From: Candidatus Heimdallarchaeota archaeon
Lineage (GTDB): Archaea; Asgardarchaeota; Heimdallarchaeia; Heimdallarchaeales; Heimdallarchaeaceae
Length of the DNA: 64,000 nt
Direction of reading: 5' to 3'
Assembly (NCBI GenBank): GCA_018238545.1
Contig: JABCTC010000003.1
Span: 1 to 64,000 of the forward strand
Position 1 is the first letter of the stretch; each line of letters opens with the position of its first letter. Below are positions 36,104 through 56,592 of this stretch, piece by piece. The notes under the pieces were generated by a model. The model searched no databases. It worked only from the letters and a program-made list of their open reading frames with translations, and was not told where the DNA came from. The translations under genes and the position numbers were made by a program.

Positions 36104-39100
36104 ATGCAAGGTAAACTCCGTACAATTATAGGTATTTTAATTTTAACAATTACAGTAAGTTCATCAGTCGCAATGGGTGTATTGCTTCCTCTTCACTCTT
36201 CGAATTTAATTACCCAAATATATACAGATATGGATAATAATGCTCGGTTGACAGAGAGTGATTTCTTTCCAAATGACGGAAGCGGTAATTACTCTGAATG
36301 GATGTATACAGGTGTAGGAACAAACACTTCAAAATTTGTTGATCAAGCAGTTTTTGAATTCTTCAATATTACAGATAGAGAGGCTTACCTCGACTACAAT
36401 ACGAAAATAGCGTACTTCTTTGTGCAAGGTGAACTAGTTTTTGACATTATTATTAATAAAACAGTTTTAGAATACGACGTAGAATCTGACTATGTAGTTT
36501 ATGCTTATAGAAAACAATTTCTCTTCAATGCAGAAGACTCATCCCTAACTGGTGATGAAACTGTTTTGAATTTCAACTATCTTTGGCCATATTATATTGA
36601 ACATTTTGGAAATGGATCAGAATATGGTTTTCAGAGTTTTATAGCATCAAAACTAATTCAAGAAGAATTAATCGGTTTTAATACATCACTAGGTTATACC
36701 TTTGATGAATTAGCTTATGCAGTTATGAATAGAACATATGCTGAAGAAGAAGGTATAGTGGATTTAGGCATCTATTTGCCCCACAATTGGTTAAGTGTAA
36801 GACCTGCTTTTCCAGATCTTAACTTTGATATTGCAACAAGTTATCAGATATTGTATGATGCTATATATAATGGTCATGATTACTCATTACTAACAGGCGA
36901 AGCTGGTTCAACTAAATACTTCCTTGATTTAGTAAGAGGTCTTGATTTTGAAGGACAATATGATTTGATTGTTGATGTTGAACAACTTTTAACAGATATT
37001 TATGGAATTGATACTCCACAAGAACAAGAATACGCAAAATCCCTTGCAGCCTATATGAATTATTTACTAGGAAAGCCTTCATTGGATTGGCTTTATGAAA
37101 ATCAAATATCATATGTTTGTGAAAGAACTGCTATGGATTGGGTATTAGGTATTGAAGATCCTCTTATGGATGGAAAAAGATTCCCCTTAGTTAACAATCA
37201 ATCATTATCAAGTTCAAGTATTGATTGGGATTTAGATTTGTATTATGCAGAAAAACTTGGATCATATGATGTAAATGATGTTGGTAAAATCATAGCAATA
37301 GCTAATATTCCAGGGTATTATTATTCTCAATCTATGGAACTATTCGTGGAAGATAACCTAGCTTACGTGATAGAAGGTGGAACTGATATTAAAATAGTTA
37401 ATATGACAGATCCCTTATTCAAAGCAATCGGTCAATTCGGAGACTTCATTCTTGACACTGCTCTTCCCAATCCTTCATACGATCCTATAGGCGTTGATGG
37501 TTATATTTCAAACCTTGTTGTAGTTGATTCATATATTTATGCAGTAGAAGGTGACACTGGATTAGAAATACTCAATGCAACCGACCCAAGTGCTATTTAC
37601 GAACTTGACCAGTGGGATAATTTTGGGAATGCTGATATGCGAGATGTTGATAACGCCGTTTTTGGAACATCAACTCCTTATGATGCTCTTATAATAGCAA
37701 ATGGACAACATGGTCTAACTTATGCCAGATTGCAAACTGAAGATAGAACAGTAAGTACAGTTGTTAATTTTGCAGGGTTATCTGGAGAGGCTTATTCCGT
37801 AGATGAATACAATGATTACGCTTTCGTAGGTTTAGGAATTGATGGAATTGATGTAGTTAGTATAGATGGTCTCGACGGTACAATGGCGCTTGAATATCAT
37901 TATGATTCAATCAATTTTGCAACATTCAATAACATTCTAGATGTTAAAGCAGAAAATGGATTCCTATACGTTCTTGATGCAGTTGAGGGATTGTTAATAT
38001 TCGATATATTGTTTAATGGTACTCTTATTGAACAAGGTCAATTTGCATATGGACCTACGGAAACACCTTACATTGATGTTTATGTTGAAGGAACTAATGC
38101 CTATTTAGCACAAGGAGATTATGGTCTTGTTGTAGTAGATATCTCTAACAAACTCAGTCCTTCTGAAAATGCCAGATTTGACGGTGCTGAACACAAAGGT
38201 TTAGCATACAGCGTATATGTTGATGGAAGTGATGTTTATCTTTCAGATTATTCTCAAGGACTGGTTCATCTCAATTATGTCTCTAACACCTTTTCAATTG
38301 CTAATAAAGATCAGTTACACACTTTCGTTGAAGCTTGGCAAAGCGAGAACAATATTCAATTCAATAATTGGCTTCTAAGTGATCCTGAATTCGAAGCAAA
38401 TGAAACATATGATTCATTCGGATTATACACATTTGTTGAAAGAGGTTTCAGACAACAATGGACAGAGTATTTCCTTAGACCTTACATCTTCTCCTCATTA
38501 ACAGATACAGCTCTGTTTGTTGATAAAACAGTATTAGTTTATACCGCACAAGCTCAGATACCATATCTACAAAATGAGGAAAACAGCCTGTATTGGATGC
38601 AAGACGCTAACTTCCTCAATGAAAGTTTCCAACATGCAGGAAGATGGAGCATCCTTCATGGGGTAGAATATCAAGCAACAGATTTTGATATTACTCATTC
38701 CTTCCCTGGTACATTACGAGATGAATTCCACATGCAATTCATGTTAGTAGAACCTAAAACAGGGTCTATAATTGAACGCAAAGATAGAGTACAATATAAT
38801 ACACGAGCTATAGACTATAAAGAGGCTTATTCACTTCTCAATAAGACTACATTCGGATACGAGTGGGAAGTCCCTGGGGCTAATTACGTCAATTTACCTG
38901 TTGATCACATCTACAAGACATGGCATGTTACATATCCAGCTTTACCTGGAGATATGGCAACACTCTTCTGGCAAGAAGATGTCTACAAAGCTACAAATAA
39001 TTTCTATGAAGTGTTAAGAGAAGACTTCTTAGATAAAATCGACAATGCTGATGCTCTGAGAACATTAGGTGCTTTTGGTTCAATGTTCAGTGTTGCCGCT

Positions 39101-39163
39101 GGTTTTATTGTAGCTTCTGTTGTGCTCAATTTCATGAAGAAGAGAGCAGAAATTCCAAAATAA
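36104..39163 (+). CDS. CD36/SR-B-like two-TM protein with an inserted LVIVD-repeat beta-propeller
   Basis: N- and C-terminal TM; FEFFNITD..QG, RTAMDWVLGIEDPL, HMQFMLVEPKTG..DRVQYN and LFWQE match CD36 motifs; central GLVVVDISN-type repeats. Confidence 0.72.
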   Translation: MQGKLRTIIGILILTITVSSSVAMGVLLPLHSSNLITQIYTDMDNNARLTESDFFPNDGSGNYSEWMYTGVGTNTSKFVDQAVFEFFNITDREAYLDYNTKIAYFFVQGELVFDIIINKTVLEYDVESDYVVYAYRKQFLFNAEDSSLTGDETVLNFNYLWPYYIEHFGNGSEYGFQSFIASKLIQEELIGFNTSLGYTFDELAYAVMNRTYAEEEGIVDLGIYLPHNWLSVRPAFPDLNFDIATSYQILYDAIYNGHDYSLLTGEAGSTKYFLDLVRGLDFEGQYDLIVDVEQLLTDIYGIDTPQEQEYAKSLAAYMNYLLGKPSLDWLYENQISYVCERTAMDWVLGIEDPLMDGKRFPLVNNQSLSSSSIDWDLDLYYAEKLGSYDVNDVGKIIAIANIPGYYYSQSMELFVEDNLAYVIEGGTDIKIVNMTDPLFKAIGQFGDFILDTALPNPSYDPIGVDGYISNLVVVDSYIYAVEGDTGLEILNATDPSAIYELDQWDNFGNADMRDVDNAVFGTSTPYDALIIANGQHGLTYARLQTEDRTVSTVVNFAGLSGEAYSVDEYNDYAFVGLGIDGIDVVSIDGLDGTMALEYHYDSINFATFNNILDVKAENGFLYVLDAVEGLLIFDILFNGTLIEQGQFAYGPTETPYIDVYVEGTNAYLAQGDYGLVVVDISNKLSPSENARFDGAEHKGLAYSVYVDGSDVYLSDYSQGLVHLNYVSNTFSIANKDQLHTFVEAWQSENNIQFNNWLLSDPEFEANETYDSFGLYTFVERGFRQQWTEYFLRPYIFSSLTDTALFVDKTVLVYTAQAQIPYLQNEENSLYWMQDANFLNESFQHAGRWSILHGVEYQATDFDITHSFPGTLRDEFHMQFMLVEPKTGSIIERKDRVQYNTRAIDYKEAYSLLNKTTFGYEWEVPGANYVNLPVDHIYKTWHVTYPALPGDMATLFWQEDVYKATNNFYEVLREDFLDKIDNADALRTLGAFGSMFSVAAGFIVASVVLNFMKKRAEIPK

Positions 39164-39354
39164 AAGAATAAACTGCGCATTCTTTTCACTCTTTTTTTCT
39201 ATCTAAGTTTTTCAAAATGCCTGTCTAATCATTTTTGCCGGTAAAATTTAACTTTAAATAGGTATAACAACAATATGATTTATATTGACAAGAACAGTCT
39301 CAATATTATTATATGTTAAGGGGACATATGACAAGAGGATAAGAGGTAAACACA

Positions 39355-42300
39355 TTGTCTGATGATACAAGAGCAAAGAAAATGTCAGCAGCTGCATTCT
39401 TCAATGATAACAAAGCAATAGCTGGCTTTGGAAATTCAATGAGGGCAGTATTTACGAGTATCAGAGAACTTGTAGAAAATGGTTTGGATGCAGCAGAAAT
39501 AAGGGGAGTCAACCCTGTTATTTCAGTTGACTTACGTAAGCTTTCTAGCAGAGAAATTAACGATCTGCTAGATGTTACACAATATAAAAAGTTGGAAAAG
39601 CATCTTGATTTTCTGCAGTTAACTTGTAGAGATAACGGTGTTGGGGTTCCAAGTAATCAAATAGCAGATTTGTTCGGACGAGTATTAACCGGAACTAAAT
39701 ACGGTGTGATTCAGACTCGTGGTCGATTTGGTCTTGGAGCAAAAATGTGTTTACTTCACTCTATGTCTTCAGTTGATCTACCTGCTCGTATCAAAAGTCG
39801 TTATTTTATGGATGATATGACTCATGAACTACATTTAATGATAGATCTTGAAAGAAATCAACCTATCGTCATGGAACAAAGAGAATATTTATCTGGAGAT
39901 CCAAATGCGCTAGAAGAACCGGGTGTTGAGATTAGCATAACCTTTACAGGTGCTTGGAGATTAGCAAAGAATAGCGTTAAAGAATACTTCAGACAGTTAG
40001 CAATTATTACTCCTTATGCAAGTTTTGATATAAAAGTTCCTGGTGATAAGGAAGGAGAATATGAGGAATTACATTATGTGAATGTGGTAGATGATATGCC
40101 TTCCCCTCCCCAGCACGTTAAAATTCATCCTTGGGGTTGTGATATCACTCAATTCAAATCAGAATTATCTTCAACTAAAGCTAAAAAAATGAAGAAATTT
40201 CTTGCAGAACATTTTATGGGAGTAACAGAAGAAATTGCTGAAGATTTCTTCCAGTTATTGGAAATCGACCCAAACAAATCACCTTCGAATATAACTTCAA
40301 AAGAAATTCGAAGAATAGTTCACGAAGGTTTTGTTAAAGCTTATCAAGAAGCCAAGGATGTTAAGAGGAAACGAGATAGGATATTTCAGTTTGACCCACC
40401 TAGAGGAGATGCTCTTTCTCCATTAGGTGCAGGAAGATTAAGGAAAGGTCTCGAGAAAGAATTACAACCAAAATTTGTTGAAGCGGTTACAAGACCTCCT
40501 AAGGCTTATTCTGGTCATCCTTTCGCAATTGAAGCAACAATGGGTTATGGTGGGGGAGTAAATGAAGCAGCTCAAGCTAAAGGAACTACCGTCCACGACA
40601 ATAAGATAATTTACAGGTATGCTAATAGAATCCCTCTTATTTTTGGGGCTGGAAATGATGTTATCACTCAAGTCGTTTCCTCTATTCGGTGGAACGATTA
40701 TGGACTAACTAGACAGTCTGACCCTCTTGCCATCGCTGTTTCGTTAGTCAGTACAAAAATACCTTTCCCTGAGACAAGTAAAGAATATATTTCTAATGTT
40801 CCTGAAATTGAAGAAGAAATAAGATTAGCTCTGATGCAATTAGGAAGGAGACTTAAAACCTTTTTGAGCAGAGCAAAACGAAGAAAGAGAGAACATGCTC
40901 GATTATCAAGATTTGTTAAATCAGCACCAGTAATAATTGAAAATCTCACTCAAATTCTTGAAGATGAGAACCTTAAATTTACCGATTTCCGACTAGAAAC
41001 AGATCGGATTTCTGCAGCTCTCGCTCATGGTACTCCGAGGAAGGTTCGCCTTTATATGCCAATTGGAAAGCGGTTATTCGGAGCAAATATTTGGTGCCCA
41101 AATAATATTCAAACTACATTAAAGAATAACAATGTTGAGTCAGTTGCAGAATTTTTACTCAAAGATTCAAAAGAATTAGTTACAATCCTTCAATTAACAG
41201 AATCTCAAGTTTACGACATAAAATTAAGAACCATTTCTGAATTGGATAGAGACAACTTGAGTCCAAATTTTGACACAAAGACCTTAGTATCTCGTCTTGT
41301 TGAAAGAAGGTTCTCCTCCGAAGGTGAAAGAAAATTCATTTCCCTAAAAGATGCATTATTTAGGCGATGGATACAAAATGTTTACCACTATTTAGCAACG
41401 GATTTCGAAAAATTACGTAATGTCTCCGGAATGCTTGAGAAATTTTTTGAAACTAAAAAAGACGAATTACTTAATGATTATTTAGCTAAAGGAGCTAAAA
41501 CAAGTAAAAATACCATATTAACAATAGACAAAGCTATTGCTACTTACGCTAAAGCATCAGATTTAAAGAAAGAACAACTTTACCCTCCTTTTAAATATTT
41601 AAAATCTGAAACTGACAATGTTCTTGGAGAAGATTTATCGATAGAAGAATTTCTTTACCAGACTGTACAACCCACATCTATCAACTATCATCCAGAAATA
41701 ACTCGAACACTTATCGAGTATCTGAAAATTGTATTTACCCACATCAAAAACAAATTCCCTGCTTTCGCAACAACCAGTATAACAAAAATGCAACCTGATT
41801 GGACAGACGGTTATACAAAAAACGCTTTCCACAGAAGAAAGATAAAAACTGTTGGTGATTTTCTAAACCATTCTACTGATGATCTTATCGACATAAAAGA
41901 ACTGGAAAGAATAATGTATGAACAATACATTGAACTGATCACATTAAATACCAAATCTGTTCCTTTGAATGATTTCTCTTTTGTTGAGATTCAACAGCTA
42001 AAAGAAGAAGAAAACCGTATTAAGAGAGTTTTGGCTAAACACGGAATAAAAACCCTTGCTCAGTTCTTAAGTTATCCCTCTGAATCGATTTTACTTAAGA
42101 AGTTTGATACTTTAAGTGCTCTTCTGCTCAAGGAATCAAAATTCAAATTATTTACAAATTTACACGATACTAATAGAATTATTAATCAATCTTACATCAA
42201 AGTTATTCCTAAAAATGTTGAAACAGAATTAGTGAAAAATCAAATATTTACAACTTCTACCTTTTTAGCCAAATCTTCTGTAATTTTGAAGAAAATGGGC

Positions 42301-45300
42301 ATGAAGAAAAAAGATATTGAGAAAGCAAAGAAAGAACTTGGTACACCTTTACAGAATTGGGTTGATCATGATGAAATTCTCAAGAAATGTGGTATAGTAG
42401 TTTTAGAAGAATTATTCTTCAATGACGCCTCTGAATATAATCTCACAACTGAAGAAAGTAAGAAATATACTGAAAATATCATTTTCCTCCGTACGCCATT
42501 AGTTTTTGTGTTACCTGAATTAAGAAGTTCTTCTTATCTTCTTACTGAAATTGGCATCAATAATATTGGTCGTTTTTTGATATGGTCTAATACTGAACTT
42601 TCAGATATCCTTTATCTATCTGTCAATGAAATAAAAGCTCTAAAGAAGAAAATTGCCTTTCAAAAACAAATTCAATCAAAAGAAGAACTGAAGAAAGATT
42701 TAGTACTTTTTTCAAGGCACTATCCCAATTTAGTGAAATATTTTGGTAATGAAACACCATCGATTCAGGATTTGTATTATGCTTACCAATCAGAGAATTT
42801 CTCGCTTAATACAGGTTTTTGGAAGAAATTATACAAATTGAGTGAACTATCTCAACAAGAAGCTGTTGATTTAGTACATCTTTATCCAAAGAACTTCAAA
42901 GATATAGAGACGGTGAAAGATGCTCTTCTACGCTTGAAATCGAGGAATGTTGAAACTATACGTCAATTCATGGAATTACAACCAGAGATAATTGAATCAA
43001 AATTGAGTAACTCAAAGGAAAGAAAAGTTGCATTAGATCTTTATGATAAAATACTATTCAGAAGATTTGAAGGAGAACAGGAACTTCATAAACAAATACT
43101 TCTTCTTAGTGAGTATGATGAACTTCAAAGAAATTTTGGATCTCCTATCTCTAGAATCCCTGAACTTACTCTAGAGGAATTGGAAAAATTCCGAAGCCAC
43201 GATATACTAGCTGTTCATCAAATATTCGATTATACAGTTGATGAAATTGCTACTTTGCTTGGTCGTGACAAAGGCTCGGTTCAACACTTCATGGAAAGCT
43301 TTACACTCTTACGGAAAGGAACACCGTTTTTTGAGAAAGCAGATAGAAACAGATACAAATCACTTGTTTCCTTTGAATTTGAGGATTTAGAACGATTTTC
43401 TTCCATAGAGATTCAATCCCTTATTCAAGCTGGCTATGCTTCAGTTGACCAGATTTTTTACCTCACACACCCACTTACTTTTTCCTCTTCCATTCTAAAT
43501 TGGAATGTTGTAGACAAATTTAGAAAATTATTACGATCTCCACTTACATTGGTTACATGGGAAAAATCAGTTAAGTTAAAATCTTTTGATGAGGTTAAAA
43601 ATAAAGAAGTTGAGGTTGTGGATATTCAGATTTCTACATTAACTACTTCACAATTAACCGTTTTGCAGAATCAAGGCATTTCAAGAATCATCGATCTTCT
43701 TGTAAGTGAACCAGAAACGCTTTCAGAATCTCTTAACATCAGTTTGGATGAAGCTAAGATGCTTCAGAAAGATATCAGAATTATTGATACTGGAACTGAT
43801 TTAGCAGATTTAGACATCTTCAAATCAGAAATTGTTGATCAATTAGAAGAAAACAACATCTTAACTCTTGAGGATTTATATTTCTCAACTACGAAGAGTA
43901 AATGGCGAGTTAAGGAAGTTCCATGGGATATCATTATGTCATTCAAAAGTGTCCTCAACCTCCCCCTTGCACATTTGTCAGATATGTTGGATGAAGATAT
44001 TATAGTTGCATTAGAGGGCGCAAATGTTAAAACTCTATTAGGATTTATTCTTACAACTCCTGAAAGTTTAATGAATAAAACTGGTATACCTGATGAAAGA
44101 TTCGAAACAATAAAACGCGGATTGGATATCTCCGATATATTCAGTTATTTCTCACTTCCAAGTTATTTTCTTCCAAATTTAACCTTCCAGCAAACCGAAA
44201 TTCTACAAGAAAATGGCATTAAATCGGTTGCAGAATTTGTAAATAGCTCTCCACAGAAAATTAACAAACTAATCAAAGTAACTGCAAAGCAGTTTCGAGA
44301 AATCACTACGGCTTTAACCACTCAAAACCTCCAAGCTCTTTACGATGAGAAAGGTATCTTTGCTTTTGAAACAAAGCTCTTCGATAAAATGGAACAACGG
44401 CAATTGGGCAGAGATTCAATATTTGAATTTGATAGGTTTCAAACTATCCAAGAAATATACTATACGTTGAATAGAGATTTCTATTCAAATAATCAAAACC
44501 TGTGGGGAAAGGTCTCGGCAATCCAGAAAGTATTATTACTTCCTCTGCACATATTCACCGAAATTTCTGAATATGCTCTTGAGATTATGAGTCAAAACAG
44601 TATTGATTTTGTTTATCAGCTACTCTTTATTCTTGATGCAGATATTACTGATCCCTTATTATTCAGAACTGTATCAACTTATTCTTCAAAAATAATTGAG
44701 ATGAGAGCATTTCATTACTTTTCTAAGCTCCCTGCTTCTGTTTATAACTCAAGTTATTTCAAAAAAATATTGAAGGATACTGACAACAAATCTCTATCTG
44801 ATGTTATTACTGATGAGAAGATTATCAAAGATTTATCTGCTAAGGATAAACAATACCTATATGAAAATTATAACTTAACTCTCATTCGATCAATTCTAGA
44901 ATTACCTCTAAGGATTACTCCTTACTTTACAAGAATAAAGAAAGTTAGAAGAGAAGAATATAAAAATACAAAAATCGGAGATGTTTTTGATATTGATTTA
45001 GAGGAGCACTCTGCTCTGTCTTCTTTTTACTCTAGATTACTTGAAGAAAATTCTTTCAACAAATTAATCTCACAATTAACTATCCCTATATCTTCAATGG
45101 GATTACCTCGCGAACTTGCATTGAAGCTAAGCAAATCCTCTATAGGTACGTTATTAGCTTTCTATTCTACTCCTGAGAAACAAGTTTCTGAAATCTCTGG
45201 TTTCTCACAGAAGAATATTCGAGAAATAAAAGATGAATTAAAATATTCCAACATTGTTTCTATCCGAGTTTCACAAGCTCATAAAATTAAACCCTCTTCC

Positions 45301-48300
45301 TTTGCATCAGAAAAACAAATTTTTGACCTTATGGGGAGATCGATATCGGATATTGAGTCTCTCTTCTACTCCGCAGAACATTTAGGAATCTCAAAATGCC
45401 TTCCCATTGAAAATTATAAGAAAATCAAGGAAATTCTATCAGGATCTATAAGATTCATAGGATTTCTTTCATTTGATGAAATAAGGCGGTTGGAGTATCA
45501 TAATATTAATTCAATAATAGATTTTGCTCTACTCTCGAAAAAAGAACTTTTCACTATTACACAGAATCCAATTTACAAGGAATTTCATGTTCTAGATCTG
45601 ATTTCTTTTGATGAATTATCAGAAAAAAGGATTCAAGCTGCTATACCCCTCTCTCTGTGTCCCTCGATAGAAGAAGACTATTTAGATAAAATCAAAGAAA
45701 TAGGAATCAACTCTATTCAAGATTTTATCTCTAGAATGCCAGAAATTAGAGAATCTCATCCTCATTTAGTGAAATTAGATATCTTCCGCGAAGTGCAAAT
45801 GTATCTGTCCTCTGTTGCTTATATCGGACTTCCAAATGAAAGCGTTCAAAAACTGATTTACTCAGGTGTTGGCGATATTTTATCTTTCATTACTGAAGAT
45901 CCTTCAACTATCTCTCTGATTCTTGGAATAAGTGAGAAACAAGTTGAGAAATATAGCAAACTTGCTGTTCCAAGTAATTTGGTCACAGAAGTCGACAACA
46001 AAGGTGTTCTTCTCACTGAATTTTCAGCGTTATCTAAAGGAAGAAGAAATTCCTTACTTAAATCTGGTAAAGAAACAGTTCAAGATCTATTTAGTTCCCG
46101 TTATCAAGCATATTCTCAATCTAACATCTCTGATGTGTTAATGAGCGAATTTATTGAAAGTTGTAATGTGTCTTTATACAGAATTGAAGAAATTGAACCA
46201 GAAATTAAAGCTAAACTTTCAAAGAGTGAAATAACTAGGATTATTGACTTATTATGTAGTACTGATGCAGAACTAAAGAAAGCTCTTGATGGTAAACTCC
46301 CAAAAGAGTTTAAGCAAATTAGAAAAGGTCAGTTTACTTTAACAAAAGGCATTCCACTAATTTTGAATGAACCTTTGCAGGATATTATTAGAGAACTTAA
46401 TATCGAACCTTCCAACAAAAAAGTTGAGGACATGTTTGGTTTTGTACCCGAATTTCTACTTCAATTTACAGAATCTGAAAGGATTGAAAAAGACAAGAAT
46501 TTGGCTTTTCTTGAACAGATAGTTAGTTTCTTGAGTCTTAATATACTATCATTACCATTATTTAATACAACTACTAAACTAATTCTTTGGAACCGTGGAA
46601 TCCGACATGTTATAGAACTTTTATCTACTAATATGAACACAATTGATGGTATCCCATTTCAAGTAATATCAGAGGTTCGCTCTTTCCAGAAAGAATTTAG
46701 TTTAACTAGAAGCATGTCAGAGACATTGTCACCATACATTGATGATGTACTCATCTTGCCTGCAAAGAAGCAAGCTAAATTCCAGAATTATGGTCTCACT
46801 AATGCATTGTTATTTGTTGATTTTATACCTCATCCTATATTCAGTTTCACAGCAAGTGAGCAATCTATTCTCAGGATTGTTTCAAATAACATGTTCAAAC
46901 CTATAGCCTGGTTATCTTCAGATATGTCATTTAAGATAGAAGATATGAATTTACTTATTCAAAATAGAGCAATAAATATCCTTTCAGCTCTTCTTTTGTT
47001 ATCTGATCAAAATGATACTAAAGTTCTAGAAACTTTATCTAATAAATACTACAAATCGATTTCTACTTACCTAAATTCATCAATCTTACAATTTAGTGCT
47101 CCTGAATGGGCCTTGCAATTAACAGATACAAAGATAATAACTGATTCTAACAGTTTGAAGATACTAAAGAAAGATAATATCTCTTATCTTGATGAATTTT
47201 TAACACTAGAAAGCAAGTTCTTGAATAACCCTAATCTTGTAGCAGAGATTTTGCCAAAATTACTCTCCCTAAAGAGTCTCCCTATTTCCTCTATCAGTGA
47301 TCTATCACCCAGTAACATTCAAAAATTAAAACGTTCAAGAATAAATAATGTTTATGAGTTTCTTGTTTTTCCAGCTCCGTTGCTTTCAAATCTTCTGTCG
47401 ATTTCTGTTGAGAATGTTAACGCAATTAAATCTTCAATTGATCTTTCATCATTGGAAAAAACAGCTAAGCTTACAGGTTTAGATCTAGAGCTCTTCCCAG
47501 AACTTTCCCAAGATTCTAGAACAATTCTTCAAAGAAGAGGTTGCGTATCTCTGAATCAAGCATCAAAAATGGATCTAGACTTGATTCCACTTCTTTCAGA
47601 AGATAAAGCGATTCTACAAAATCTAATAGCTATGTTGTTTACTCCTACTACATTAATTGGAAAAATACTTAAATTAACAAAAAATGAAATTGATGAATTA
47701 TTGGTTCAGAACGTATGTACCTATGCAGACCTGTTGGAGCTTCCTCAAAAAACATGGCCAGCAAAAATAAGGAAGAGTCTTTCTGATAAGGATTCTGATC
47801 CAACATACCTTATCAAGAATCTACAGAACCTTGAGAAATTCGGAGTACCTATAGAAAAGTTAGATTTAGCGAAAAGTGTAACTAAATCTTTGGTAGAAGC
47901 AGGAATTGTGACAATTGATCATCTATACTATCTACCCATAGCCTATGTAAGTGCAAGAAGTAAAGTTAAACAGCATATTCTTGAAGAAATAAAGAAGAAA
48001 TTATCATATAATATTAATTTCCTTCAAGATATCTCACTTACAACTTTATCTGTTTGCTATTCAAAAGATTCATTCACGATAATTAGTTGCTTGATTTATT
48101 GGAATGGTTTATCGAAAGATGTAAGAACAGACTTAGAAGGTTCTTTAGACAGTATCAAATTAATTGAAGAAACAAGTTTTATAGAACCACTGACTCCAAC
48201 GGAAACAAAGTTAAAATCAATAGGTATTTTCTCCTTAAGATCATTCATTTTATCTCCTCAGATTAAGAAAGAAGCAGGCTTAACAACCAAACTTTTACCA

Positions 48301-51300
48301 TCTCTATTAGCAAATATTCGTTTCTTAAATCTAGATCCAAAGCAGAGTTATCGCTTGAAGAAAACAGGTTTTACAACTGTTGCTGACTTGCTTCTAAATA
48401 CATCAAAAACTATATCTGTTAAGTCTAAATTGGGCAAGAACGCAATTGATGAAGTTATCAATAACATAAAAATTGATAACCTAACCAGTTTGATTAAATC
48501 GATGGAACGAGAGCATTTACATGATGCATTTTATCTGAATTCTAACGATAAAGCATTCTTGAAATCAATAGGTGTTTATAGTTTAGCAGACTTAAACGAG
48601 TATACTGTTTTTGATTGGTTTGTTTCAAAACAAAAAATACAGAAAATCAAAAAGAAAATTAATTCCTTATTAGATACTAACATTTTGTACTATCCAGGAA
48701 TCACATCTAAGCAGTATGCAGAAGTTGTTGAACAATTCTTCATGAAGGATATATTTACAATCAAAGATCTGATGATATCAACAACAGTTGAGCAGTCAAG
48801 TGATTTAATTGAATTTTTAACCATTTTCTCTACTAACAAACCTAAAATCCAATCCCAGTATTTAACTTCTCTATCATTCTTAAAAGGGATTGAAGCCAAA
48901 GACTTGTTTAAGATTGACGTAAAAATGGAAAAATCTGCAACAATTAATGATCTTATTATAGCATTATACAAAAATTCAGCAGAATTGACCAAAAAGGGTG
49001 ATGATGTTCTTAAGCAAATCAGCTACCCCATTTCTATTTCATCGAAACTCAATCTCGATGAAGTAAATATTTTACTTAGTAAAAATATCCTCTCTTATGG
49101 AGATGTGCTTACCAAACCATCAGGTTATTGGGTAGCATTTACTCCAGTGAAACTAAAGAAGAAACTTCTTGAAATTCTTAGTACAATAACATCGAAAACT
49201 ATTAGCAATGATAGTAGTAAGGGCGTTCAATTAAGTAACATGAAAATATTTGATGCAAACCTCAAGAAACAGCTTACATCAAATTTTAAAACACTCGATG
49301 AAGTTGCTCATGCAATAAGAATAGGTGATTCTCGGATCTTAAAACCATTAGAGAGGAAAATCACTAAGGTTCTCTCTACTCCTATTTCTCTCCTTAAACT
49401 GCCAAAAATCAGCATCAAATCTTGGAAACGACTGTTATCTACAGCATCTACATTAGAAGAATTTTACTTATTAACAGATCAAGAACTTGTCAAAATATTT
49501 TCTTCTACCAAAGAAGAAATCGTAAAATTAAAAAATAATCTTGGTCCTGATAATATCGTCCTACCTCCAAGGATAAAGGAAAATAAAATCTTTACTAGTT
49601 CTGATGTTAAAGAATTGAGTGATAATAGTATTTCAAATTACATACAAATATTTGATAAATCTGCAGAAAAAGCAGATCTCAGCACTTCCTTAAAAGATAA
49701 AATTGCTTTCTACAAAGAGTTTGATGTTAAGCAACTAGATGAAAACTTAGAAGAAACTATACTCTTGAAAGATTTTGTAATTCTTGAATCTTATGCAGAT
49801 TCTCTAGAATTAAGTAGAAAACAAAAAGAATCTGTAAAGAACCTTTCTTCCTTGCTTCTATCTCGTGGTACATATTTGTCAAAGATTTTTGATATAGATT
49901 CTAATAAAGACAAAAGTGGTTTGCTCAATACAACTATAGAGTATTTCCTCTTAATTGAGAAATATCAACCTAAAATATACTCGAAAATTATTGAATCTTT
50001 ACCGGGAAATATCTCTTCACAATTCAACTCTTTACTGTCTTATCTCAATCGATCACCAATTCTCCTTTCAGGACCAAATCTAAAAAATATCAATAAAATA
50101 GTTAAACTTCCTTATGAAAATGTAAAGGACTTGCTATTATTGTCCAAGGAGAAACTTGTTCAAGAAATAGATGACACTGCAGTTCAAAGAAATATTAGAG
50201 GATTGACATTATCTATTTTGAAGAGTCTTAATTCCAAACTGACCTCTATTCCAAAAGAATTTTTGACAGCTTACGAGTTAAATCAGTTAAAGAAAGAGAA
50301 TATTTATTCCTTTGAGGAAGCTTTGGTTTTCAATAGAAAATCAACTAGTAAGAAGTCTAAGACTTGGTTACTCTCTGAGAAAGTAAGAAAAATTTCCACT
50401 ATCAACACACTCTCACTTTCTTCGTATCTCCCCTCATCTAAAATACAAGAAAGACTACTAAAACTTAAGATATCCAATGTTTATGAGCTGGTTTATTATT
50501 GCCAGAATACAGAAAAAGAAGAAGATCTGAGTCTTTGTCAAACTGTAATTCAATCTGTAAGTTCCATTAACATTGAGGAAATTGAAATAAAAGAGAGAAA
50601 AAGATTTGCTAAATTCTTTAATGACCCTGATATTCTTTCTTATTTGCGAAGCCAAGATATCAGAACTTTTGGACCTTTAGTACACTATCTAGAGCAATTA
50701 GAGGATGAAACTATTACACCTGAAATTGAGAAAATCTTATCCGTTATGCGTTTTCCAATTTCTGTTCTATCAGAAAATAAGAAACTTGTACAAAAATTAG
50801 AAAGTGAAGGTTATAACCAAGTAATTGATCTTCTTCTTCCTGCAAAAATTCAAAACAGTTTGAAAAGCAATATTACAGAGAATCAGCGGAAAGTTCTTGC
50901 GTCTTTAATCAACATGTTTTATCAAGAAATATACCAAACAATCCTAAAAAATCATTATCCAGTTTCAAAACTTACTTTGATCGATGATATTTTACAAAAA
51001 GAATTAATAAAAGCTGGATATGCAACAGTAGCTCATCTCAAATCACCTGATATAATTATTGCTGATACAAGCAAATTAAATCTGCAACAAATTTCACGTA
51101 TTGTGAGACTGTTTGATGCTTCTACCTACTACTTGTCTGAAATGCTCAAAGACTATCCACAAAGTGCTTTTGTTTTGTATAGCAATGGAATTAACACACT
51201 ATGGGACATTTTCCTTACAGGAAGTAAGGAAATATCCAAGATTACAGGTATATCTGTTCGTCAAGTAAATTCCTACTTATCAACTATCAATCCTCAAGCT

Positions 51301-52059
51301 ATGAAACTTTCGCAGAAAGATCAAATTATTCTGAAAGAAACACTTACCTACTTAACAACCGATGATGTGGGACGATTGGAACAAGATAACATCACATCTA
51401 TCCAACAATTATTGTTCCTAACAAAGGAAAACAAAACCAGTTCTTCACTCCAACGAAGTAATGTAAAGAAATTCATTCAATTACTTAGTATGCCTTTAAG
51501 TACAATAGACATACAAGAAACAGTTATTAAACAGCTGGAAGTACTCGGCATTAAATTAGTAAAAGATTTTGTTGTTTATCCAGCAGAACCTATGGCTGGC
51601 AAAGTAGACATAAGTTATGTAATGATAAAAAGAATTAAGGGAAGACTTCCTTTGGTTACAAAAAAGAAAGTAAAACAAACTGCCAAAACTTCGACCTTAA
51701 AGAAACCAACAGCTAAAAAATCTGCTACAACTAAGGGAGCTACTCCCGCTAAAAAGCGTTCTTCAACAAAGTCTAAGACCACAAAGAAAACTATAGCTCC
51801 GAAGAAATCAGCAAAAACTCAACAAAAAGCTAAACCAAAGGCTAAACCAAAGGCTAAACCAAAGGCTAAACCAAAGGCTAAACCAAAGGCTAAACCAAAG
51901 GCTAAACCAAAGGCTAAACCAAAGGCTAAACCAAAACCGAAATCCACTAAACAAATGACTTTGATGGATATTAAACCTACTTCCACAAAGAAACCATCTT
52001 CAACTTCAAAAACGAGAAAAAGCTCAAAATCCACTACTAAAAAAGGTGAAAAATCATGA
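39355..52059 (+). CDS. top6B: DNA topoisomerase VI subunit B with about 3,600-aa extension of HhH-like repeats and basic tail (4234 aa)
   Basis: GHKL motifs RELVENGLDA, DNGVG, RGRFGLG; transducer RYANRIPL and STKIPF; one uninterrupted ORF; repeats such as PIEKLDLAKSVTKSLVEAGIVTIDHL. Confidence 0.92.
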   Translation: MSDDTRAKKMSAAAFFNDNKAIAGFGNSMRAVFTSIRELVENGLDAAEIRGVNPVISVDLRKLSSREINDLLDVTQYKKLEKHLDFLQLTCRDNGVGVPSNQIADLFGRVLTGTKYGVIQTRGRFGLGAKMCLLHSMSSVDLPARIKSRYFMDDMTHELHLMIDLERNQPIVMEQREYLSGDPNALEEPGVEISITFTGAWRLAKNSVKEYFRQLAIITPYASFDIKVPGDKEGEYEELHYVNVVDDMPSPPQHVKIHPWGCDITQFKSELSSTKAKKMKKFLAEHFMGVTEEIAEDFFQLLEIDPNKSPSNITSKEIRRIVHEGFVKAYQEAKDVKRKRDRIFQFDPPRGDALSPLGAGRLRKGLEKELQPKFVEAVTRPPKAYSGHPFAIEATMGYGGGVNEAAQAKGTTVHDNKIIYRYANRIPLIFGAGNDVITQVVSSIRWNDYGLTRQSDPLAIAVSLVSTKIPFPETSKEYISNVPEIEEEIRLALMQLGRRLKTFLSRAKRRKREHARLSRFVKSAPVIIENLTQILEDENLKFTDFRLETDRISAALAHGTPRKVRLYMPIGKRLFGANIWCPNNIQTTLKNNNVESVAEFLLKDSKELVTILQLTESQVYDIKLRTISELDRDNLSPNFDTKTLVSRLVERRFSSEGERKFISLKDALFRRWIQNVYHYLATDFEKLRNVSGMLEKFFETKKDELLNDYLAKGAKTSKNTILTIDKAIATYAKASDLKKEQLYPPFKYLKSETDNVLGEDLSIEEFLYQTVQPTSINYHPEITRTLIEYLKIVFTHIKNKFPAFATTSITKMQPDWTDGYTKNAFHRRKIKTVGDFLNHSTDDLIDIKELERIMYEQYIELITLNTKSVPLNDFSFVEIQQLKEEENRIKRVLAKHGIKTLAQFLSYPSESILLKKFDTLSALLLKESKFKLFTNLHDTNRIINQSYIKVIPKNVETELVKNQIFTTSTFLAKSSVILKKMGMKKKDIEKAKKELGTPLQNWVDHDEILKKCGIVVLEELFFNDASEYNLTTEESKKYTENIIFLRTPLVFVLPELRSSSYLLTEIGINNIGRFLIWSNTELSDILYLSVNEIKALKKKIAFQKQIQSKEELKKDLVLFSRHYPNLVKYFGNETPSIQDLYYAYQSENFSLNTGFWKKLYKLSELSQQEAVDLVHLYPKNFKDIETVKDALLRLKSRNVETIRQFMELQPEIIESKLSNSKERKVALDLYDKILFRRFEGEQELHKQILLLSEYDELQRNFGSPISRIPELTLEELEKFRSHDILAVHQIFDYTVDEIATLLGRDKGSVQHFMESFTLLRKGTPFFEKADRNRYKSLVSFEFEDLERFSSIEIQSLIQAGYASVDQIFYLTHPLTFSSSILNWNVVDKFRKLLRSPLTLVTWEKSVKLKSFDEVKNKEVEVVDIQISTLTTSQLTVLQNQGISRIIDLLVSEPETLSESLNISLDEAKMLQKDIRIIDTGTDLADLDIFKSEIVDQLEENNILTLEDLYFSTTKSKWRVKEVPWDIIMSFKSVLNLPLAHLSDMLDEDIIVALEGANVKTLLGFILTTPESLMNKTGIPDERFETIKRGLDISDIFSYFSLPSYFLPNLTFQQTEILQENGIKSVAEFVNSSPQKINKLIKVTAKQFREITTALTTQNLQALYDEKGIFAFETKLFDKMEQRQLGRDSIFEFDRFQTIQEIYYTLNRDFYSNNQNLWGKVSAIQKVLLLPLHIFTEISEYALEIMSQNSIDFVYQLLFILDADITDPLLFRTVSTYSSKIIEMRAFHYFSKLPASVYNSSYFKKILKDTDNKSLSDVITDEKIIKDLSAKDKQYLYENYNLTLIRSILELPLRITPYFTRIKKVRREEYKNTKIGDVFDIDLEEHSALSSFYSRLLEENSFNKLISQLTIPISSMGLPRELALKLSKSSIGTLLAFYSTPEKQVSEISGFSQKNIREIKDELKYSNIVSIRVSQAHKIKPSSFASEKQIFDLMGRSISDIESLFYSAEHLGISKCLPIENYKKIKEILSGSIRFIGFLSFDEIRRLEYHNINSIIDFALLSKKELFTITQNPIYKEFHVLDLISFDELSEKRIQAAIPLSLCPSIEEDYLDKIKEIGINSIQDFISRMPEIRESHPHLVKLDIFREVQMYLSSVAYIGLPNESVQKLIYSGVGDILSFITEDPSTISLILGISEKQVEKYSKLAVPSNLVTEVDNKGVLLTEFSALSKGRRNSLLKSGKETVQDLFSSRYQAYSQSNISDVLMSEFIESCNVSLYRIEEIEPEIKAKLSKSEITRIIDLLCSTDAELKKALDGKLPKEFKQIRKGQFTLTKGIPLILNEPLQDIIRELNIEPSNKKVEDMFGFVPEFLLQFTESERIEKDKNLAFLEQIVSFLSLNILSLPLFNTTTKLILWNRGIRHVIELLSTNMNTIDGIPFQVISEVRSFQKEFSLTRSMSETLSPYIDDVLILPAKKQAKFQNYGLTNALLFVDFIPHPIFSFTASEQSILRIVSNNMFKPIAWLSSDMSFKIEDMNLLIQNRAINILSALLLLSDQNDTKVLETLSNKYYKSISTYLNSSILQFSAPEWALQLTDTKIITDSNSLKILKKDNISYLDEFLTLESKFLNNPNLVAEILPKLLSLKSLPISSISDLSPSNIQKLKRSRINNVYEFLVFPAPLLSNLLSISVENVNAIKSSIDLSSLEKTAKLTGLDLELFPELSQDSRTILQRRGCVSLNQASKMDLDLIPLLSEDKAILQNLIAMLFTPTTLIGKILKLTKNEIDELLVQNVCTYADLLELPQKTWPAKIRKSLSDKDSDPTYLIKNLQNLEKFGVPIEKLDLAKSVTKSLVEAGIVTIDHLYYLPIAYVSARSKVKQHILEEIKKKLSYNINFLQDISLTTLSVCYSKDSFTIISCLIYWNGLSKDVRTDLEGSLDSIKLIEETSFIEPLTPTETKLKSIGIFSLRSFILSPQIKKEAGLTTKLLPSLLANIRFLNLDPKQSYRLKKTGFTTVADLLLNTSKTISVKSKLGKNAIDEVINNIKIDNLTSLIKSMEREHLHDAFYLNSNDKAFLKSIGVYSLADLNEYTVFDWFVSKQKIQKIKKKINSLLDTNILYYPGITSKQYAEVVEQFFMKDIFTIKDLMISTTVEQSSDLIEFLTIFSTNKPKIQSQYLTSLSFLKGIEAKDLFKIDVKMEKSATINDLIIALYKNSAELTKKGDDVLKQISYPISISSKLNLDEVNILLSKNILSYGDVLTKPSGYWVAFTPVKLKKKLLEILSTITSKTISNDSSKGVQLSNMKIFDANLKKQLTSNFKTLDEVAHAIRIGDSRILKPLERKITKVLSTPISLLKLPKISIKSWKRLLSTASTLEEFYLLTDQELVKIFSSTKEEIVKLKNNLGPDNIVLPPRIKENKIFTSSDVKELSDNSISNYIQIFDKSAEKADLSTSLKDKIAFYKEFDVKQLDENLEETILLKDFVILESYADSLELSRKQKESVKNLSSLLLSRGTYLSKIFDIDSNKDKSGLLNTTIEYFLLIEKYQPKIYSKIIESLPGNISSQFNSLLSYLNRSPILLSGPNLKNINKIVKLPYENVKDLLLLSKEKLVQEIDDTAVQRNIRGLTLSILKSLNSKLTSIPKEFLTAYELNQLKKENIYSFEEALVFNRKSTSKKSKTWLLSEKVRKISTINTLSLSSYLPSSKIQERLLKLKISNVYELVYYCQNTEKEEDLSLCQTVIQSVSSINIEEIEIKERKRFAKFFNDPDILSYLRSQDIRTFGPLVHYLEQLEDETITPEIEKILSVMRFPISVLSENKKLVQKLESEGYNQVIDLLLPAKIQNSLKSNITENQRKVLASLINMFYQEIYQTILKNHYPVSKLTLIDDILQKELIKAGYATVAHLKSPDIIIADTSKLNLQQISRIVRLFDASTYYLSEMLKDYPQSAFVLYSNGINTLWDIFLTGSKEISKITGISVRQVNSYLSTINPQAMKLSQKDQIILKETLTYLTTDDVGRLEQDNITSIQQLLFLTKENKTSSSLQRSNVKKFIQLLSMPLSTIDIQETVIKQLEVLGIKLVKDFVVYPAEPMAGKVDISYVMIKRIKGRLPLVTKKKVKQTAKTSTLKKPTAKKSATTKGATPAKKRSSTKSKTTKKTIAPKKSAKTQQKAKPKAKPKAKPKAKPKAKPKAKPKAKPKAKPKAKPKPKSTKQMTLMDIKPTSTKKPSSTSKTRKSSKSTTKKGEKS
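51829..51936 (+). repeat. Coding 12-bp tandem repeat (gctaaaccaaag)x9 encoding (AKPK)9
   Basis: 8 perfect units plus 1 with a single mismatch. Confidence 0.97.
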
Positions 52060-53465
52060 GTTCAGATTGCAAATTCATTATTAGTAATTCAACAGTTTTA
52101 CCTGCTATTGAGAGAACTGCTTCTTTTGACAAGGATATTCTAGTTCGAGAGATATACAGTTGGGCCAGAGAAACATTTGACCTCAAACGAGGGTCATATG
52201 TACTATTTTTAAGAAGCTTCAAGAAATGGCACAAACTTGAGCCTACAAGAAAATTATCTAGATACAATCTACAAAAAGATACCATGAGTATTAGTGTAAA
52301 AAACACAGTTTCAATCGACAAACTAAAAATCGTTAGAGAAGAATTGAAACATCTAACTGAATACTTGATGCCTTTCGGTGTTACTCACGTAGCAACTAAA
52401 AATTCTCAAGAAACAAACAATCTTCTTGTAGAATATTCTTTAGATTTCCTAAATCAAGCAATGTTATCACCTAATGATGCATCTTTTCAGATTCCATCTA
52501 GAGCTGGTACAAATGTAGGTTTTGATGAGGATCAAGAATTAGTTCTTATTGGTCGTCAAATGATTGATAGACAATTTAGAAATTTAGCTTCAGTTAGTTC
52601 TGTCGAACAAATGACCATTGTTATGAAACTTATTCATGATATTCTATCCAGAGATATTCACAGTACTAAAAGAGATATATTTTACATGAATGTAAATGCA
52701 TTTGATAAACAGTCTGTCTCTGATTCTCTCATAGAAGATGTTGGCGCAATGTTACAGGTTACTCGTTCATCTTTGAATATTAGTGCTTCTTCTAAAGGTA
52801 TTGTTGTTGGGAGGATTAGTTTCAAAGAAAAAGGAGATCTCATAAATTGCCGTGCAATAGGGGCTGGCAAAGCTATTTCCCCTAATATTGATGATATAGA
52901 AAACATGGAAACTGATGCAGAGATGTGTTTAGTTATTGAGAAGGATGCTGTCTTCAATAGGCTAGCTGAGGATCAATTCTATGATTATGTCCCAAGTATC
53001 CTTGTAACAGCAAAAGGTCAACCAGATATAGCTACAAGACAATTTTTGAAGAAGATAAACGATGATCTCAATCTACCTATATTTGCTGTAATGGATGCTG
53101 ATCCTTATGGGTTCGAAATTATGAGAGTATATAGTGTAGGGAGCAAAGCATTGAGTTTTGAATCAAGTCATTTAGCTGTTCCCAGCATTAAATGGTTAGG
53201 TTTACTACCTAGTGATCTCGCTCCTGAAAGTGGATTTGATATTCCGAGAAGTGCTTTAATTAAAATGACTTCCAAAGATCTTCATCGATCTAAACTGATG
53301 CTAGATGAGGAATTTGTTAAAAGAAAGCCAAAATGGAAAGAACAACTAGAAATACAAATAGCAACTGGTTTAAAAGCTGAAATACAGGCTCTTAACGCAA
53401 GAGATCCACAATATATTACCAATTTTTATCTTCCACAAAAAATCGAGGCTGGAGATTTTATCTAA
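52056..53465 (+). CDS. top6A: DNA topoisomerase VI subunit A with N-terminal ubiquitin-like domain
   Basis: KRDIFY (catalytic Tyr), TOPRIM IEKDAVF and DADPYG, KAEIQAL; N-terminal LEPTRKLSRYNLQKD; ATGA overlap with top6B and an AGGTGA SD. Confidence 0.93.
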   Translation: MSSDCKFIISNSTVLPAIERTASFDKDILVREIYSWARETFDLKRGSYVLFLRSFKKWHKLEPTRKLSRYNLQKDTMSISVKNTVSIDKLKIVREELKHLTEYLMPFGVTHVATKNSQETNNLLVEYSLDFLNQAMLSPNDASFQIPSRAGTNVGFDEDQELVLIGRQMIDRQFRNLASVSSVEQMTIVMKLIHDILSRDIHSTKRDIFYMNVNAFDKQSVSDSLIEDVGAMLQVTRSSLNISASSKGIVVGRISFKEKGDLINCRAIGAGKAISPNIDDIENMETDAEMCLVIEKDAVFNRLAEDQFYDYVPSILVTAKGQPDIATRQFLKKINDDLNLPIFAVMDADPYGFEIMRVYSVGSKALSFESSHLAVPSIKWLGLLPSDLAPESGFDIPRSALIKMTSKDLHRSKLMLDEEFVKRKPKWKEQLEIQIATGLKAEIQALNARDPQYITNFYLPQKIEAGDFI

Positions 53466-53525: not shown

Positions 53526-54032
53526 TTATCCCTTTAGAAGTACAATCTCAATTGTGGAAACTGTTTTTGGACCGTATCCTTCTATATCGCTTGGTAATTC
53601 TTCAGATCCTATAACCACTTTATCTATTACTACACTATCTTGTAGAAATTTTCTGCGAGCAATTTCAGCAACATCAACTGCTTTAGAGATTTGTCTCCCG
53701 CGGGCTTGAATTGCGCATTTATCGCGTTTATTTAATATAGTAACTGCAACTAAAACATAACTAATTGTTGGTTTTTTTCCAATGTAAATAATATGACTCT
53801 GCTCTCTGTATTCAGTTTTAGGTTTAGGTTTAGGGGTTTCTTTGGGAGCTTCCTCTTTGACTTCCTCTCTGACTTCCTCTCTGACTTCCTCTCTGACTTC
53901 CTCTCTGACTTCCTCTCTGACTTCCTCTCTGACTTCCTCTTTGACTTCCTCTTTGACTTCCTCTTTGACTTCCTCTTTGACTTCCTCTTTGACTTCCTCT
54001 TTGACTTCTTCCTTAGCTACTTTCTTACTCAT
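53526..54032 (-). CDS. albA: Alba DNA/RNA-binding protein with N-terminal acidic repeat extension
   Basis: IYIGKKP..SYV, ARGRQISKAVDVAE, VSTIEIVL; AGGTGA SD before ATG 54032. Confidence 0.93.
   Translation of the reverse strand: MSKKVAKEEVKEEVKEEVKEEVKEEVKEEVKEEVREEVREEVREEVREEVREEVREEVKEEAPKETPKPKPKTEYREQSHIIYIGKKPTISYVLVAVTILNKRDKCAIQARGRQISKAVDVAEIARRKFLQDSVVIDKVVIGSEELPSDIEGYGPKTVSTIEIVLLKG
53850..54005 (-). repeat. Coding 12-bp tandem repeat x13 encoding (VKEE)6(VREE)6(VKEE)
   Basis: ttcctct(t/c)tgac units on the + strand. Confidence 0.97.
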
Positions 54033-54204
54033 GAACATCACCTATTTTTCTTTTGTCTGTCAAATGTTTCAGTATAAGTAGTATCAAAAAGGTATTGCAA
54101 CGTTAAAAATATTTCCTATTACATTTGTGACAGAAAAGAACAGATAAATACATTAAAGTAGACTACATTACGGGTTTGATATCACCAAAGGATGTTTAAT
54201 AGAT

Positions 54205-56591: not shown

Positions 56592-56592
56592 A

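Follow-up and report, generated by a model that had tools for sequence, protein, structure and literature searches.

The B subunit of topoisomerase VI (Topo VI), Top6B, is usually about 500-800 amino acids (aa) long. In the M. mazei enzyme the DNA arms follow the stalk and the H2TH domain (PMC13040014), and C-terminal additions to Top6B have been proposed to reflect a specialisation beside gyrase, with a division of labour between the two enzymes (Villain et al., PMC9348778). In topoisomerase V (Topo V), many of the repeats built of paired helix-hairpin-helix motifs, (HhH)2, surround the DNA without contacting it, around a cavity of only slight positive charge (PMC9489208). Here we analyse a 64,000-nucleotide (nt) stretch of DNA from Candidatus Heimdallarchaeota archaeon (the window; contig JABCTC010000003.1 of assembly GCA_018238545.1, positions 1 to 64,000), in which one open reading frame (ORF) encodes a Top6B about eight times the normal size. 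In this protein a complete catalytic core is followed by a very long arm of (HhH)2 modules and by a basic tail. As the best reading of the giant Topo VI we propose a tethered, DNA- and clamp-anchored specialised decatenase, to which we give a probability of about 0.5. The giant gene and its partner top6A are laid out in the window as follows.

39343..39347, + strand: Shine-Dalgarno-like GAGGT, 7 nt 5' of the TTG start of giant top6B
39355..52059, + strand: giant top6B ORF, 4,234 aa, ~484 kDa, TTG start
39355..40104, + strand: GHKL ATPase domain, with N-box E38/N42, G1 D93 and G2 RGxxGxG at 122-128
40105..40398, + strand: H2TH domain, boundaries approximate, taken from the alignment to 2ZBK and 2Q2E
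40399..40989, + strand: transducer and stalk, with W446-x-x-Y449, switch K476 and basic stalk residues R498/R499/K501/R506
41062..51654, + strand: (HhH)2 array of ~57 RadA/Rad51-N-like modules (42 by profile, 5 by model, ~10 inferred)
43555..43638, + strand: beta-hairpin insert in the array, aa ~1401-1428, at the edge of a modelled tile and of lower confidence
51670..52056, + strand: Lys/Thr/Ser-rich basic tail, 129 aa, isoelectric point 11.5
51821-51935, + strand: polymorphic PKAK tandem repeat inside the basic tail
51949..51972, + strand: PIP-box-like motif KQMTLMDI, aa 4199-4206
52056..53465, + strand: top6A, 469 aa, with catalytic Y210, Toprim E295 and D347-x-D349
52056..52310, + strand: N-terminal ubiquitin-like (beta-grasp) domain of Top6A

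The initial annotation had taken the first ~550 aa for a complete Top6B, and the analysis bore this out. Residues 1-545 scored above both general NCBIfam Top6B cut-offs (NF003218, 454 against 274; TIGR01052, 397 against 381) and aligned over their full length with the Top6B proteins of S. shibatae (2ZBK) and M. mazei (2Q2E). The GHKL boxes were intact (E38/N42, D93-N-G-x-G, RGxxGxG), and the transducer matched PF09239 (E 5e-54) with W446/Y449 and the switch K476 kept and the Lys of WKxY replaced by Asn. The predicted model showed a long stalk helix and reached a VIA Z of 16.6 to 2ZBK. The cognate Top6A, encoded by the adjoining gene, carried PF04406 and PF21180 together with Y210, E295 and the DxD pair, and the stop of top6B and the start of top6A were joined by an ATGA overlap. 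On every feature that can be tested from sequence or model the giant protein is a member of the Top6B family, the B subunit of a type IIB topoisomerase, and ATP-dependent relaxation and decatenation are predicted. In this genome (92% complete) the giant gave the single transducer-domain match and was the sole Top6B found.

That assembly or annotation had wrongly joined a Top6B gene to an unrelated ORF has next to no probability. A contig of 8,039 nt from a separately assembled run, which may be the window's own source sample, matched positions 39340-47378 with 20 substitutions and no gap, and bridged the junction of core and arm. Across four runs, the sole indel or skip listed within the ORF was in-frame and inside the PKAK repeat of the tail. 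Relatives at 57-96% core identity share the open frame: dozens of genomes from several families, including complete chromosomes and two single-contig genomes, carry the fusion uninterrupted. In one relative (G033) core and arm lie in two ORFs, and in two single-contig bins with masked stretches the frame is shortened, as a wrong join might predict; the G033 break, however, looks like a single missing A in a homopolymer within the stalk, and the shorter database matches were fragments labelled partial or on short contigs. Apart from that probable frameshift, no relative was found to encode the extension as a separate gene, and the reading of the locus as one continuous ORF, Top6B and then a long extension, stands. 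None of the results was of the kind that the initial annotation had named as refuting.

A survey of Asgard Top6B lengths, which the initial annotation had called for, gave giants of 2,300-4,340 aa in Heimdallarchaeaceae, Kariarchaeaceae, Hodarchaeales and Ca. Borrarchaeum. Heimdallarchaeaceae orthologues, that of the single-contig Ca. Heimdallarchaeum aukensis genome among them, measured 4,140-4,341 aa; the lengths were ~3,470-3,920 aa in Kariarchaeaceae and one neighbouring family, 2,300-2,980 aa in Hodarchaeales-type genomes and ~2,290 aa in Ca. Borrarchaeum. Within a family the length was nearly fixed (4,140-4,341, ~3,470-3,690 and 2,312-2,346 aa), with almost no indels. Over five genome pairs, the ratio of nonsynonymous to synonymous substitution rates (dN/dS) was 0.02-0.06 in the core and 0.04-0.19 in all six extension segments of 550-650 codons each, so that the whole extension is, by this sequence measure, under purifying selection. 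Conservation dropped with distance from the core, down to 30-40% identity within the genus for the distal modules. Module order was kept between families over the proximal ~1,200 aa, and ~700 aa of the array is missing in Kariarchaeaceae.

The extension had been described as ~3,600 aa of degenerate units with a fold like that of RadA-N, NusA-AR and the C-terminal domain of the RNA polymerase alpha subunit (alphaCTD). We obtained ~3,550 aa of highly diverged (HhH)2 modules; the last ~130 aa of the protein are the Lys-rich tail, not repeats. Whole-protein Pfam matches above cut-off were RAD51D_N (E 5e-23) and HHH_5 (E 8e-11). A repeat hidden Markov model detected 24-29 units in giant Top6B and none in 114 shuffled extensions. 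With an orthologue-averaged profile of 20 aligned family sequences, 42 units were found, against 0-1 in the reversed alignment and none in the core. AlphaFold tiles revealed 5 further units in the gaps of the profile, 4 regular and 1 irregular. The remaining gaps would fit ~10 more, which gives a total of ~57; the count of about 57 made by eye thus agrees in its total, and its last ten or so units are deduced from the space left. The orthologue profile gave the unit consensus P-I-x-x-L-x-x-L-S-x-E-x-I-x-K-L-x-x-x-G-I-x-T-I-x-D-F-L-x-x-P-x-E-E-L-x-x-I-L-G-L-S, and the conserved positions of the array belonged mainly to the hydrophobic core.

The single modules were best matched in structure by the N-termini of RAD51D (VIA Z 8.4, root mean square deviation 3.3 A over 61 aa) and RAD51C (Z 7.8), followed by NusA AR1/AR2, alphaCTD and many SAM domains at Z 5-6.5. 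A search with the unit profile placed the N-termini of Dmc1 and Rad51 (Dmc1, E 3e-5) and alphaCTD at the top. Pfam, profile and structural matches thus agree on the proposed fold, and the modelled tiles contain it. In a search of 1.84 billion representative proteins with the unit profile, all proteins with at least 12 units were giant Top6B family members or their fragments, save one 1,590-aa fragment, open at both ends, for which family assignment was not possible. By this search, giant Top6B is the longest (HhH)2 array found among these representatives. Foldseek and Atlas searches with the 931-aa model described below gave no significant global match, which does not imply a new fold.

Units shared a mean identity of 13% (maximum 33%), and neither BLASTN nor BLASTP produced a self-match of the extension; the expansion is therefore old, as first supposed. 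The spacing of units alternated between 54 and 67 aa, forming pairs of ~121 aa, in 16 of 16 adjacent pairs from aa 1920 (a split chosen post hoc) and in 19 of 24 overall. In a class-level profile test the alternation reached p 0.011, and the same rhythm was present in Hodarchaeales-type proteins. Over the whole array the lag-1 correlation of spacings was not significant (r 0.11), the proximal units being irregular. The alternation indicates that modules were duplicated two at a time. The tiles modelled with AlphaFold, aa 345-1150 (806 aa) and aa 1400-2330 (931 aa), reached a predicted local distance difference test (pLDDT) of 85.9 and 86.7 and a predicted template modelling score (pTM) of 0.68 and 0.73. 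The high pTM over 800-930 residues suggests that the modules pack in a fixed, rigid way.

The GhG hairpin was rare in the arms of the giants (0-3% of the first and 2-9% of the second HhH of detected units). The units of the Heimdallarchaeaceae family (n=287) carried it in 0% of first and 2% of second hairpins, which does not qualify them as DNA-binding (HhH)2 domains. A shorter form with 7 units kept it in 43% of first and 54% of second hairpins; the ancestral modules probably bound DNA. The net charge of the giant arrays ranged from -3.4 to +1.0 per 100 aa and was acidic in most lineages. Among 46 orthologues, aa 545-1100 contained 13 conserved basic and 9 conserved acidic positions, and the conserved charged positions of aa 1400-2330 were 12 acidic and 6 basic. 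Since the DNA arms of M. mazei Topo VI run along the stalk and H2TH domain, the proximal modules would be placed to extend their path. The initial annotation had gone further and seen in the whole extension a DNA-wrapping arm of the Topo V type. The loss of the GhG hairpins and the near-neutral or acidic charge make wrapping less likely, though Topo V itself encloses DNA with few contacts. Topo V was the top Foldseek row for the 931-aa model, at a non-significant E of 0.044 and a TM-score of at most 0.14, and was absent from the best 60 matches of the unit profile. As stated, the wrapping claim found no support. No sequence support for an apurinic/apyrimidinic (AP) lyase activity was seen in giant Top6B either.

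Lys-rich tails closed the protein in most lineages with giant Top6B; one family (L048:1026-13757; protein P0051) has two or more DNA-binding SAP domains there. In the tail of the window protein, the motif KQMTLMDI has Q, T and L invariant in 13 aligned family orthologues, the remaining tail being variable. The pattern KQx(T/S)h occurred in 34 of 74 complete tails, a set whose rows are related and partly redundant, against a mean of 0.8 (maximum 5) after shuffling and 0.6% of the genome's own ORF ends. Variants were QKSLNAF in a Hodarchaeales form and QKSLDEY in other lineages. The motif resembles the PCNA-interacting peptide (PIP) of the host Fen1, KQKSLDAFF. The tail has part of what defines a PIP box: Q at position 1, an aliphatic residue at position 4 and a disordered terminal location. 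Position 7 is I, M, L or V in the Heimdallarchaeaceae family, and F or Y in some other lineages. When the tail peptide was modelled with the host PCNA, a score of 0.68 was obtained, against 0.10 for the best control, and peptide residues 15-22 lay in the PIP pocket (at least 80% of contacts agreeing between runs; partner pLDDT at least 51). The score mark applied is reached by 58 of 80 solved and 2 of 110 mismatched pairs. Topo VI has been co-purified with NucS and PCNA (PMC4929162), and no report of a PIP box in Top6B was found in the searchable literature.

An N-terminal ubiquitin-like domain (Ubl) of ~85 aa was present on Top6A in the lineages with a giant B subunit and not in those with the 7-unit form. 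Borrarchaeum orthologues scored above the Pfam cut-offs for PF00240 and PF11976, and the window Top6A taken alone scored below them; an alignment including it matched single ubiquitin chains at E 2e-4 to 5e-3. Pairwise BLASTP of its N-terminus against the Borrarchaeum Ubl gave no match, and an Atlas feature search of that N-terminus returned only leads under 0.9. In a tree, the giant's Top6A fell within the main Asgard Top6A clade, apart from extra copies; PMC12680538 reports this clade as the closest, or sister, lineage of the eukaryotic Top6A/Spo11 proteins. The Lys-rich tail, the PIP-like motif and the Ubl, none of which the initial annotation contained, point to tethering over wrapping.

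In most of the searched genomes of Hodarchaeales, Kariarchaeaceae and Heimdallarchaeaceae the giant was the only Topo VI found. The 7-unit form (1,108-1,155 aa) was the sister clade of the giants in a Top6B tree; this tree was a quick one, without approximately unbiased (AU) test or true root and with nine long-insert or partial rows left out, and the order of growth steps can therefore only be inferred. GyrA was detected in 61 of 63 genomes of the giant-bearing families and in 0 of 10 in the 7-unit family. The gyrA of the window's genome (C59:5441-8074) encodes 1,286 aa with an insert of ~430 aa in the catalytic domain, probably an intein, which is patchy among relatives. In Hodarchaeales-type genomes (L064:3-1397, L072:1-1530) giant top6B is immediately preceded on its own strand by gyrA, which overlaps or abuts it; the two genes look like a gyrase-Topo VI operon. 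Borrarchaeum and the 7-unit family gave no GyrA match and possess a second, short Topo VI, whose top6B-top6A pair lies in Borrarchaeum a few kb from the giant. The idea that the giant form strictly needs gyrase was rejected, no GyrA having been found in four Borrarchaeum genomes (two of them 100% complete) with a 2,290-aa form. That form has ~17-18 modules, then ~550 helical aa without Pfam match (L073:3938-10816, L131:2776-5627). Every lineage with an armed Topo VI that was checked has a further type II topoisomerase as well, which agrees with the division of labour suggested by Villain et al. (PMC9348778).

A comparable combination was found in Thorarchaeia on the other subunit. There, Top6A proteins of 658-954 aa (L120:370-3231, L124:3889-6477, L125:3851-6097, L152-L171) carry an N-terminal PIP-like QxTL (22 of 23 sequences), a Lys-rich tract and 2 to ~8 canonical HhH. 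These armed proteins are nested in the tree among HhH-less relatives, which implies that clamp motif, basic tract and HhH came together on this enzyme on two separate occasions. No paper on the Thorarchaeia arm was found. A reading of it as the giant array with a shifted gene boundary was rejected on account of the mirrored order, a similarity at the level of the HhH motif only and the HhH-less relatives in between.

In the proposed mechanism, the holoenzyme would be the cell's conserved Topo VI, an A2B2 assembly of roughly 1.07 MDa whose core performs ordinary ATP-dependent strand passage. The arm would have begun small, like that of the 7-unit form, with a handful of canonical HhH domains that bound DNA, and grown by duplication of a two-module unit, after which most modules would have lost their DNA hairpins and become a rigid structural boom. 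DNA would be held mainly at two places: the conserved basic residues of the first modules, which would lengthen the path of the DNA arms on Top6B, and the basic tail. The terminal motif would bind PCNA weakly and so bring the enzyme onto newly replicated DNA behind the fork, the site of precatenanes and catenanes. Specialisation in decatenation would be affordable with a second type II enzyme, gyrase or the short Topo VI, handling supercoils. The tethered decatenase is supported by the intact sole-copy core, the purifying selection, the high pTM and the loss of GhG in giants, and also by the enrichment of the motif, the PCNA model, the Thorarchaeia parallel, the SAP-containing tails and the second type II enzymes.

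Several points weigh against it. The conserved basic residues of the proximal modules are nearly matched in number by acidic ones and may be structural. None of the 74 tails holds a strict PIP box (QxxhxxAA); with the two canonical aromatics missing, the motif is non-canonical and PIP-like at best. The complex of a PIP with PCNA is a textbook one, so a resemblance to solved complexes of this kind may be enough for the PCNA model to pass; it shows likeness and not binding. The KQx(T/S)h motif is absent from Kariarchaeaceae tails, so clamp binding is not the reason for the arm in all lineages. Few independent lineages underlie the link between the arm and a second type II enzyme. Finally, an arm of 57 modules is far longer than a tether requires, and none of the candidate mechanisms accounts for the fixed length within families.

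Among the other explanations, a rigid array that wraps or encircles DNA through a charged groove instead of GhG hairpins, as a clamp raising processivity or biasing supercoiling, is possible but doubtful. It shares the (HhH)2 fold class with Topo V, whose mostly non-contacting repeats and slightly positive cavity (PMC9489208) mean that net charge does not exclude such a clamp; the 7-unit form and the Thorarchaeia arms have kept canonical hairpins, and Topo V did head the Foldseek rows, if without significance. The scarcity of GhG in giant units (0-9%), the acidic arrays of most lineages, the mostly acidic conserved charges of aa 1400-2330, the low TM-score and the place of Topo V outside the best 60 profile matches all speak against it. 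A more ambitious version of the tether seems rather unlikely: the two arms of ~57 modules as a dedicated device for chromosome organisation or segregation, which docks on PCNA and on the DNA sites of the basic tails, keeps sister DNA at a fixed spacing or builds an axis, and allows decatenation by the core at that place.

Unlikely, too, is a protein scaffold or chromosome organiser, in which the protein partners of the modules would be RNA polymerase, RadA, histones, Alba or the arm of another Topo VI, and the enzyme would belong to a chromosome axis or condensate. Structural neighbours such as NusA AR1/AR2, alphaCTD and SAM domains would suit that role, as would hairpins lost despite strong purifying selection, a module order kept between families in the proximal ~1,200 aa, the co-occurring Ubl on Top6A and the adjoining alba in 11 family loci. 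The SAM and NusA scores are, however, within the range of common helical arrangements, the distal modules fall to 30-40% identity within the genus, ~700 aa is dispensed with in Kariarchaeaceae, and alba is convergent and not co-transcribed with top6A; no partner was identified. It is quite improbable that function is confined to the proximal modules and the tail, the remainder having grown by tolerated duplication with conservation for folding alone, or being cut off after translation as from a polyprotein. The spread of lengths between families (2,300-4,340 aa), conservation falling away from the core and the mainly hydrophobic conserved positions could be read in this way, but the near-fixed length within each family with almost no indels, a dN/dS of at most 0.17 in distal segments and the cost of a 12.7-kb gene argue otherwise, and Pfam found no intein or protease domain in giant Top6B.

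The giant armed Top6B appears undescribed in the searchable Topo VI literature, and databases label the protein plain 'Top6B'. Topoisomerases are unmentioned in the available text and supplements of Wu et al. 2022 (PMC8813620); the giant may be among the Asgard proteins above 3,000 aa shown in a figure of that paper, outside the available part. Hodarchaeales, Kariarchaeaceae and Heimdallarchaeaceae are the archaea nearest to eukaryotes, and the giant belongs to their Topo VI. An armed Topo VI makes the division of labour between Topo VI and gyrase (PMC9348778) testable, with a localisation mechanism (PCNA and basic tail) that arose twice in Asgard archaea. It also bears on the position of eukaryotes, as a branch within Heimdallarchaeia or next to them: the former would entail the loss of an arm of 1,800-3,700 aa and of the Ubl. 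Were the organising or segregation device real, the archaeal clade closest to eukaryotes would share it as a derived trait, carried by the Top6A lineage from which Spo11 arose, and a single chain would fulfil a task that eukaryotes give to accessory subunits.

Some further observations concern other Top6B forms and the neighbourhood of the locus. Lokiarchaeia-type Top6B proteins (L112:3326-6634, L114:3220-6687, L113, L115, L122, L123) measure 1,000-1,200 aa, are very divergent and have large unannotated inserts before the transducer; their C-terminal segment looks winged-helix-like by eye, and no HhH units were found in these long forms. A Top6B of 1,353 aa (L121:2079-6137) has ~270 extra N-terminal residues and an insert of ~600 aa between GHKL and transducer, without Pfam intein match. 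In a genome of the same genus (G003; L078:2-2455) a second Top6B of the 7-unit type lies on a 3.7-kb contig, groups with the other family and is probably mis-binned. In the window, top6B is directly preceded at 36104-39163 (+) by a gene for a 1,019-aa LVIVD-repeat protein, whose position is kept across Heimdallarchaeaceae. The alba gene at 53526-54041 (-), convergent with top6A and adjacent to it in 11 family loci, encodes a protein whose N-terminus carries an acidic repeat, EEVK/EEVR, with at least 12.7 tandem copies of its 12-nt unit. Positions 55998-58947 (+) hold a small GTPase, then a 784-aa HEAT-repeat protein; a related small GTPase occurs near top6A also in Hodarchaeales-type loci. A 492-aa TnpB/Cas12f-like RNA-guided nuclease lies at 60301-61779 (-) (NF040570, E 4e-25, under cut-off).

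Compared with known systems, the giant shares with archaeal Top6B (S. shibatae 2ZBK/1MX0; M. mazei 2Q2E/9O0G) the GHKL-H2TH-transducer-stalk core over aa 6-540 (E 1e-87), the catalytic motifs, the basic stalk and the top6B-top6A operon. It differs by ~3,690 extra residues, where M. mazei has only an immunoglobulin-like C-terminal domain of ~100 aa, by the Asn in WKxY and by the N-terminal Ubl of its partner Top6A. Its modules have the five-helix (HhH)2 fold of ~55-60 aa known from the N-domain of RadA/Rad51/Dmc1/RAD51D, from alphaCTD and from NusA AR1/AR2 (PF14520, PF21794, PF03118); these occur there in 1-2 copies, and in the giant as ~57 in tandem pairs with most GhG hairpins lost. With the PIP-box partners Fen1, RFC-L, PolB, NucS and NreA it has in common a Q-x-T-L-x-D-h motif in a disordered terminal tail, modelled into the PIP pocket, but the Heimdallarchaeaceae motif is without aromatics at positions 7-8. 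The Thorarchaeia Top6A arm likewise brings QxTL, a Lys-rich tract and RadA-N-like HhH to an Asgard Topo VI, on the side of the holoenzyme where the B stalk and the A N-terminus lie; it differs in sitting on the A subunit, in its mirrored order, its 2 to ~8 modules with canonical GhG and its flexible basic linkers. The sole described precedent that we found for a topoisomerase domain followed by a tandem (HhH)2 array is the type IC Topo V of Methanopyrus kandleri, with 12 tandem (HhH)2. The two enzymes belong to different catalytic classes, the giant being type IIB with ~57 modules and showing no significant sequence or global fold match to Topo V; the AP-lyase sites of Topo V are without evidence in the giant, which adds to its array a basic tail and a PIP-like motif.

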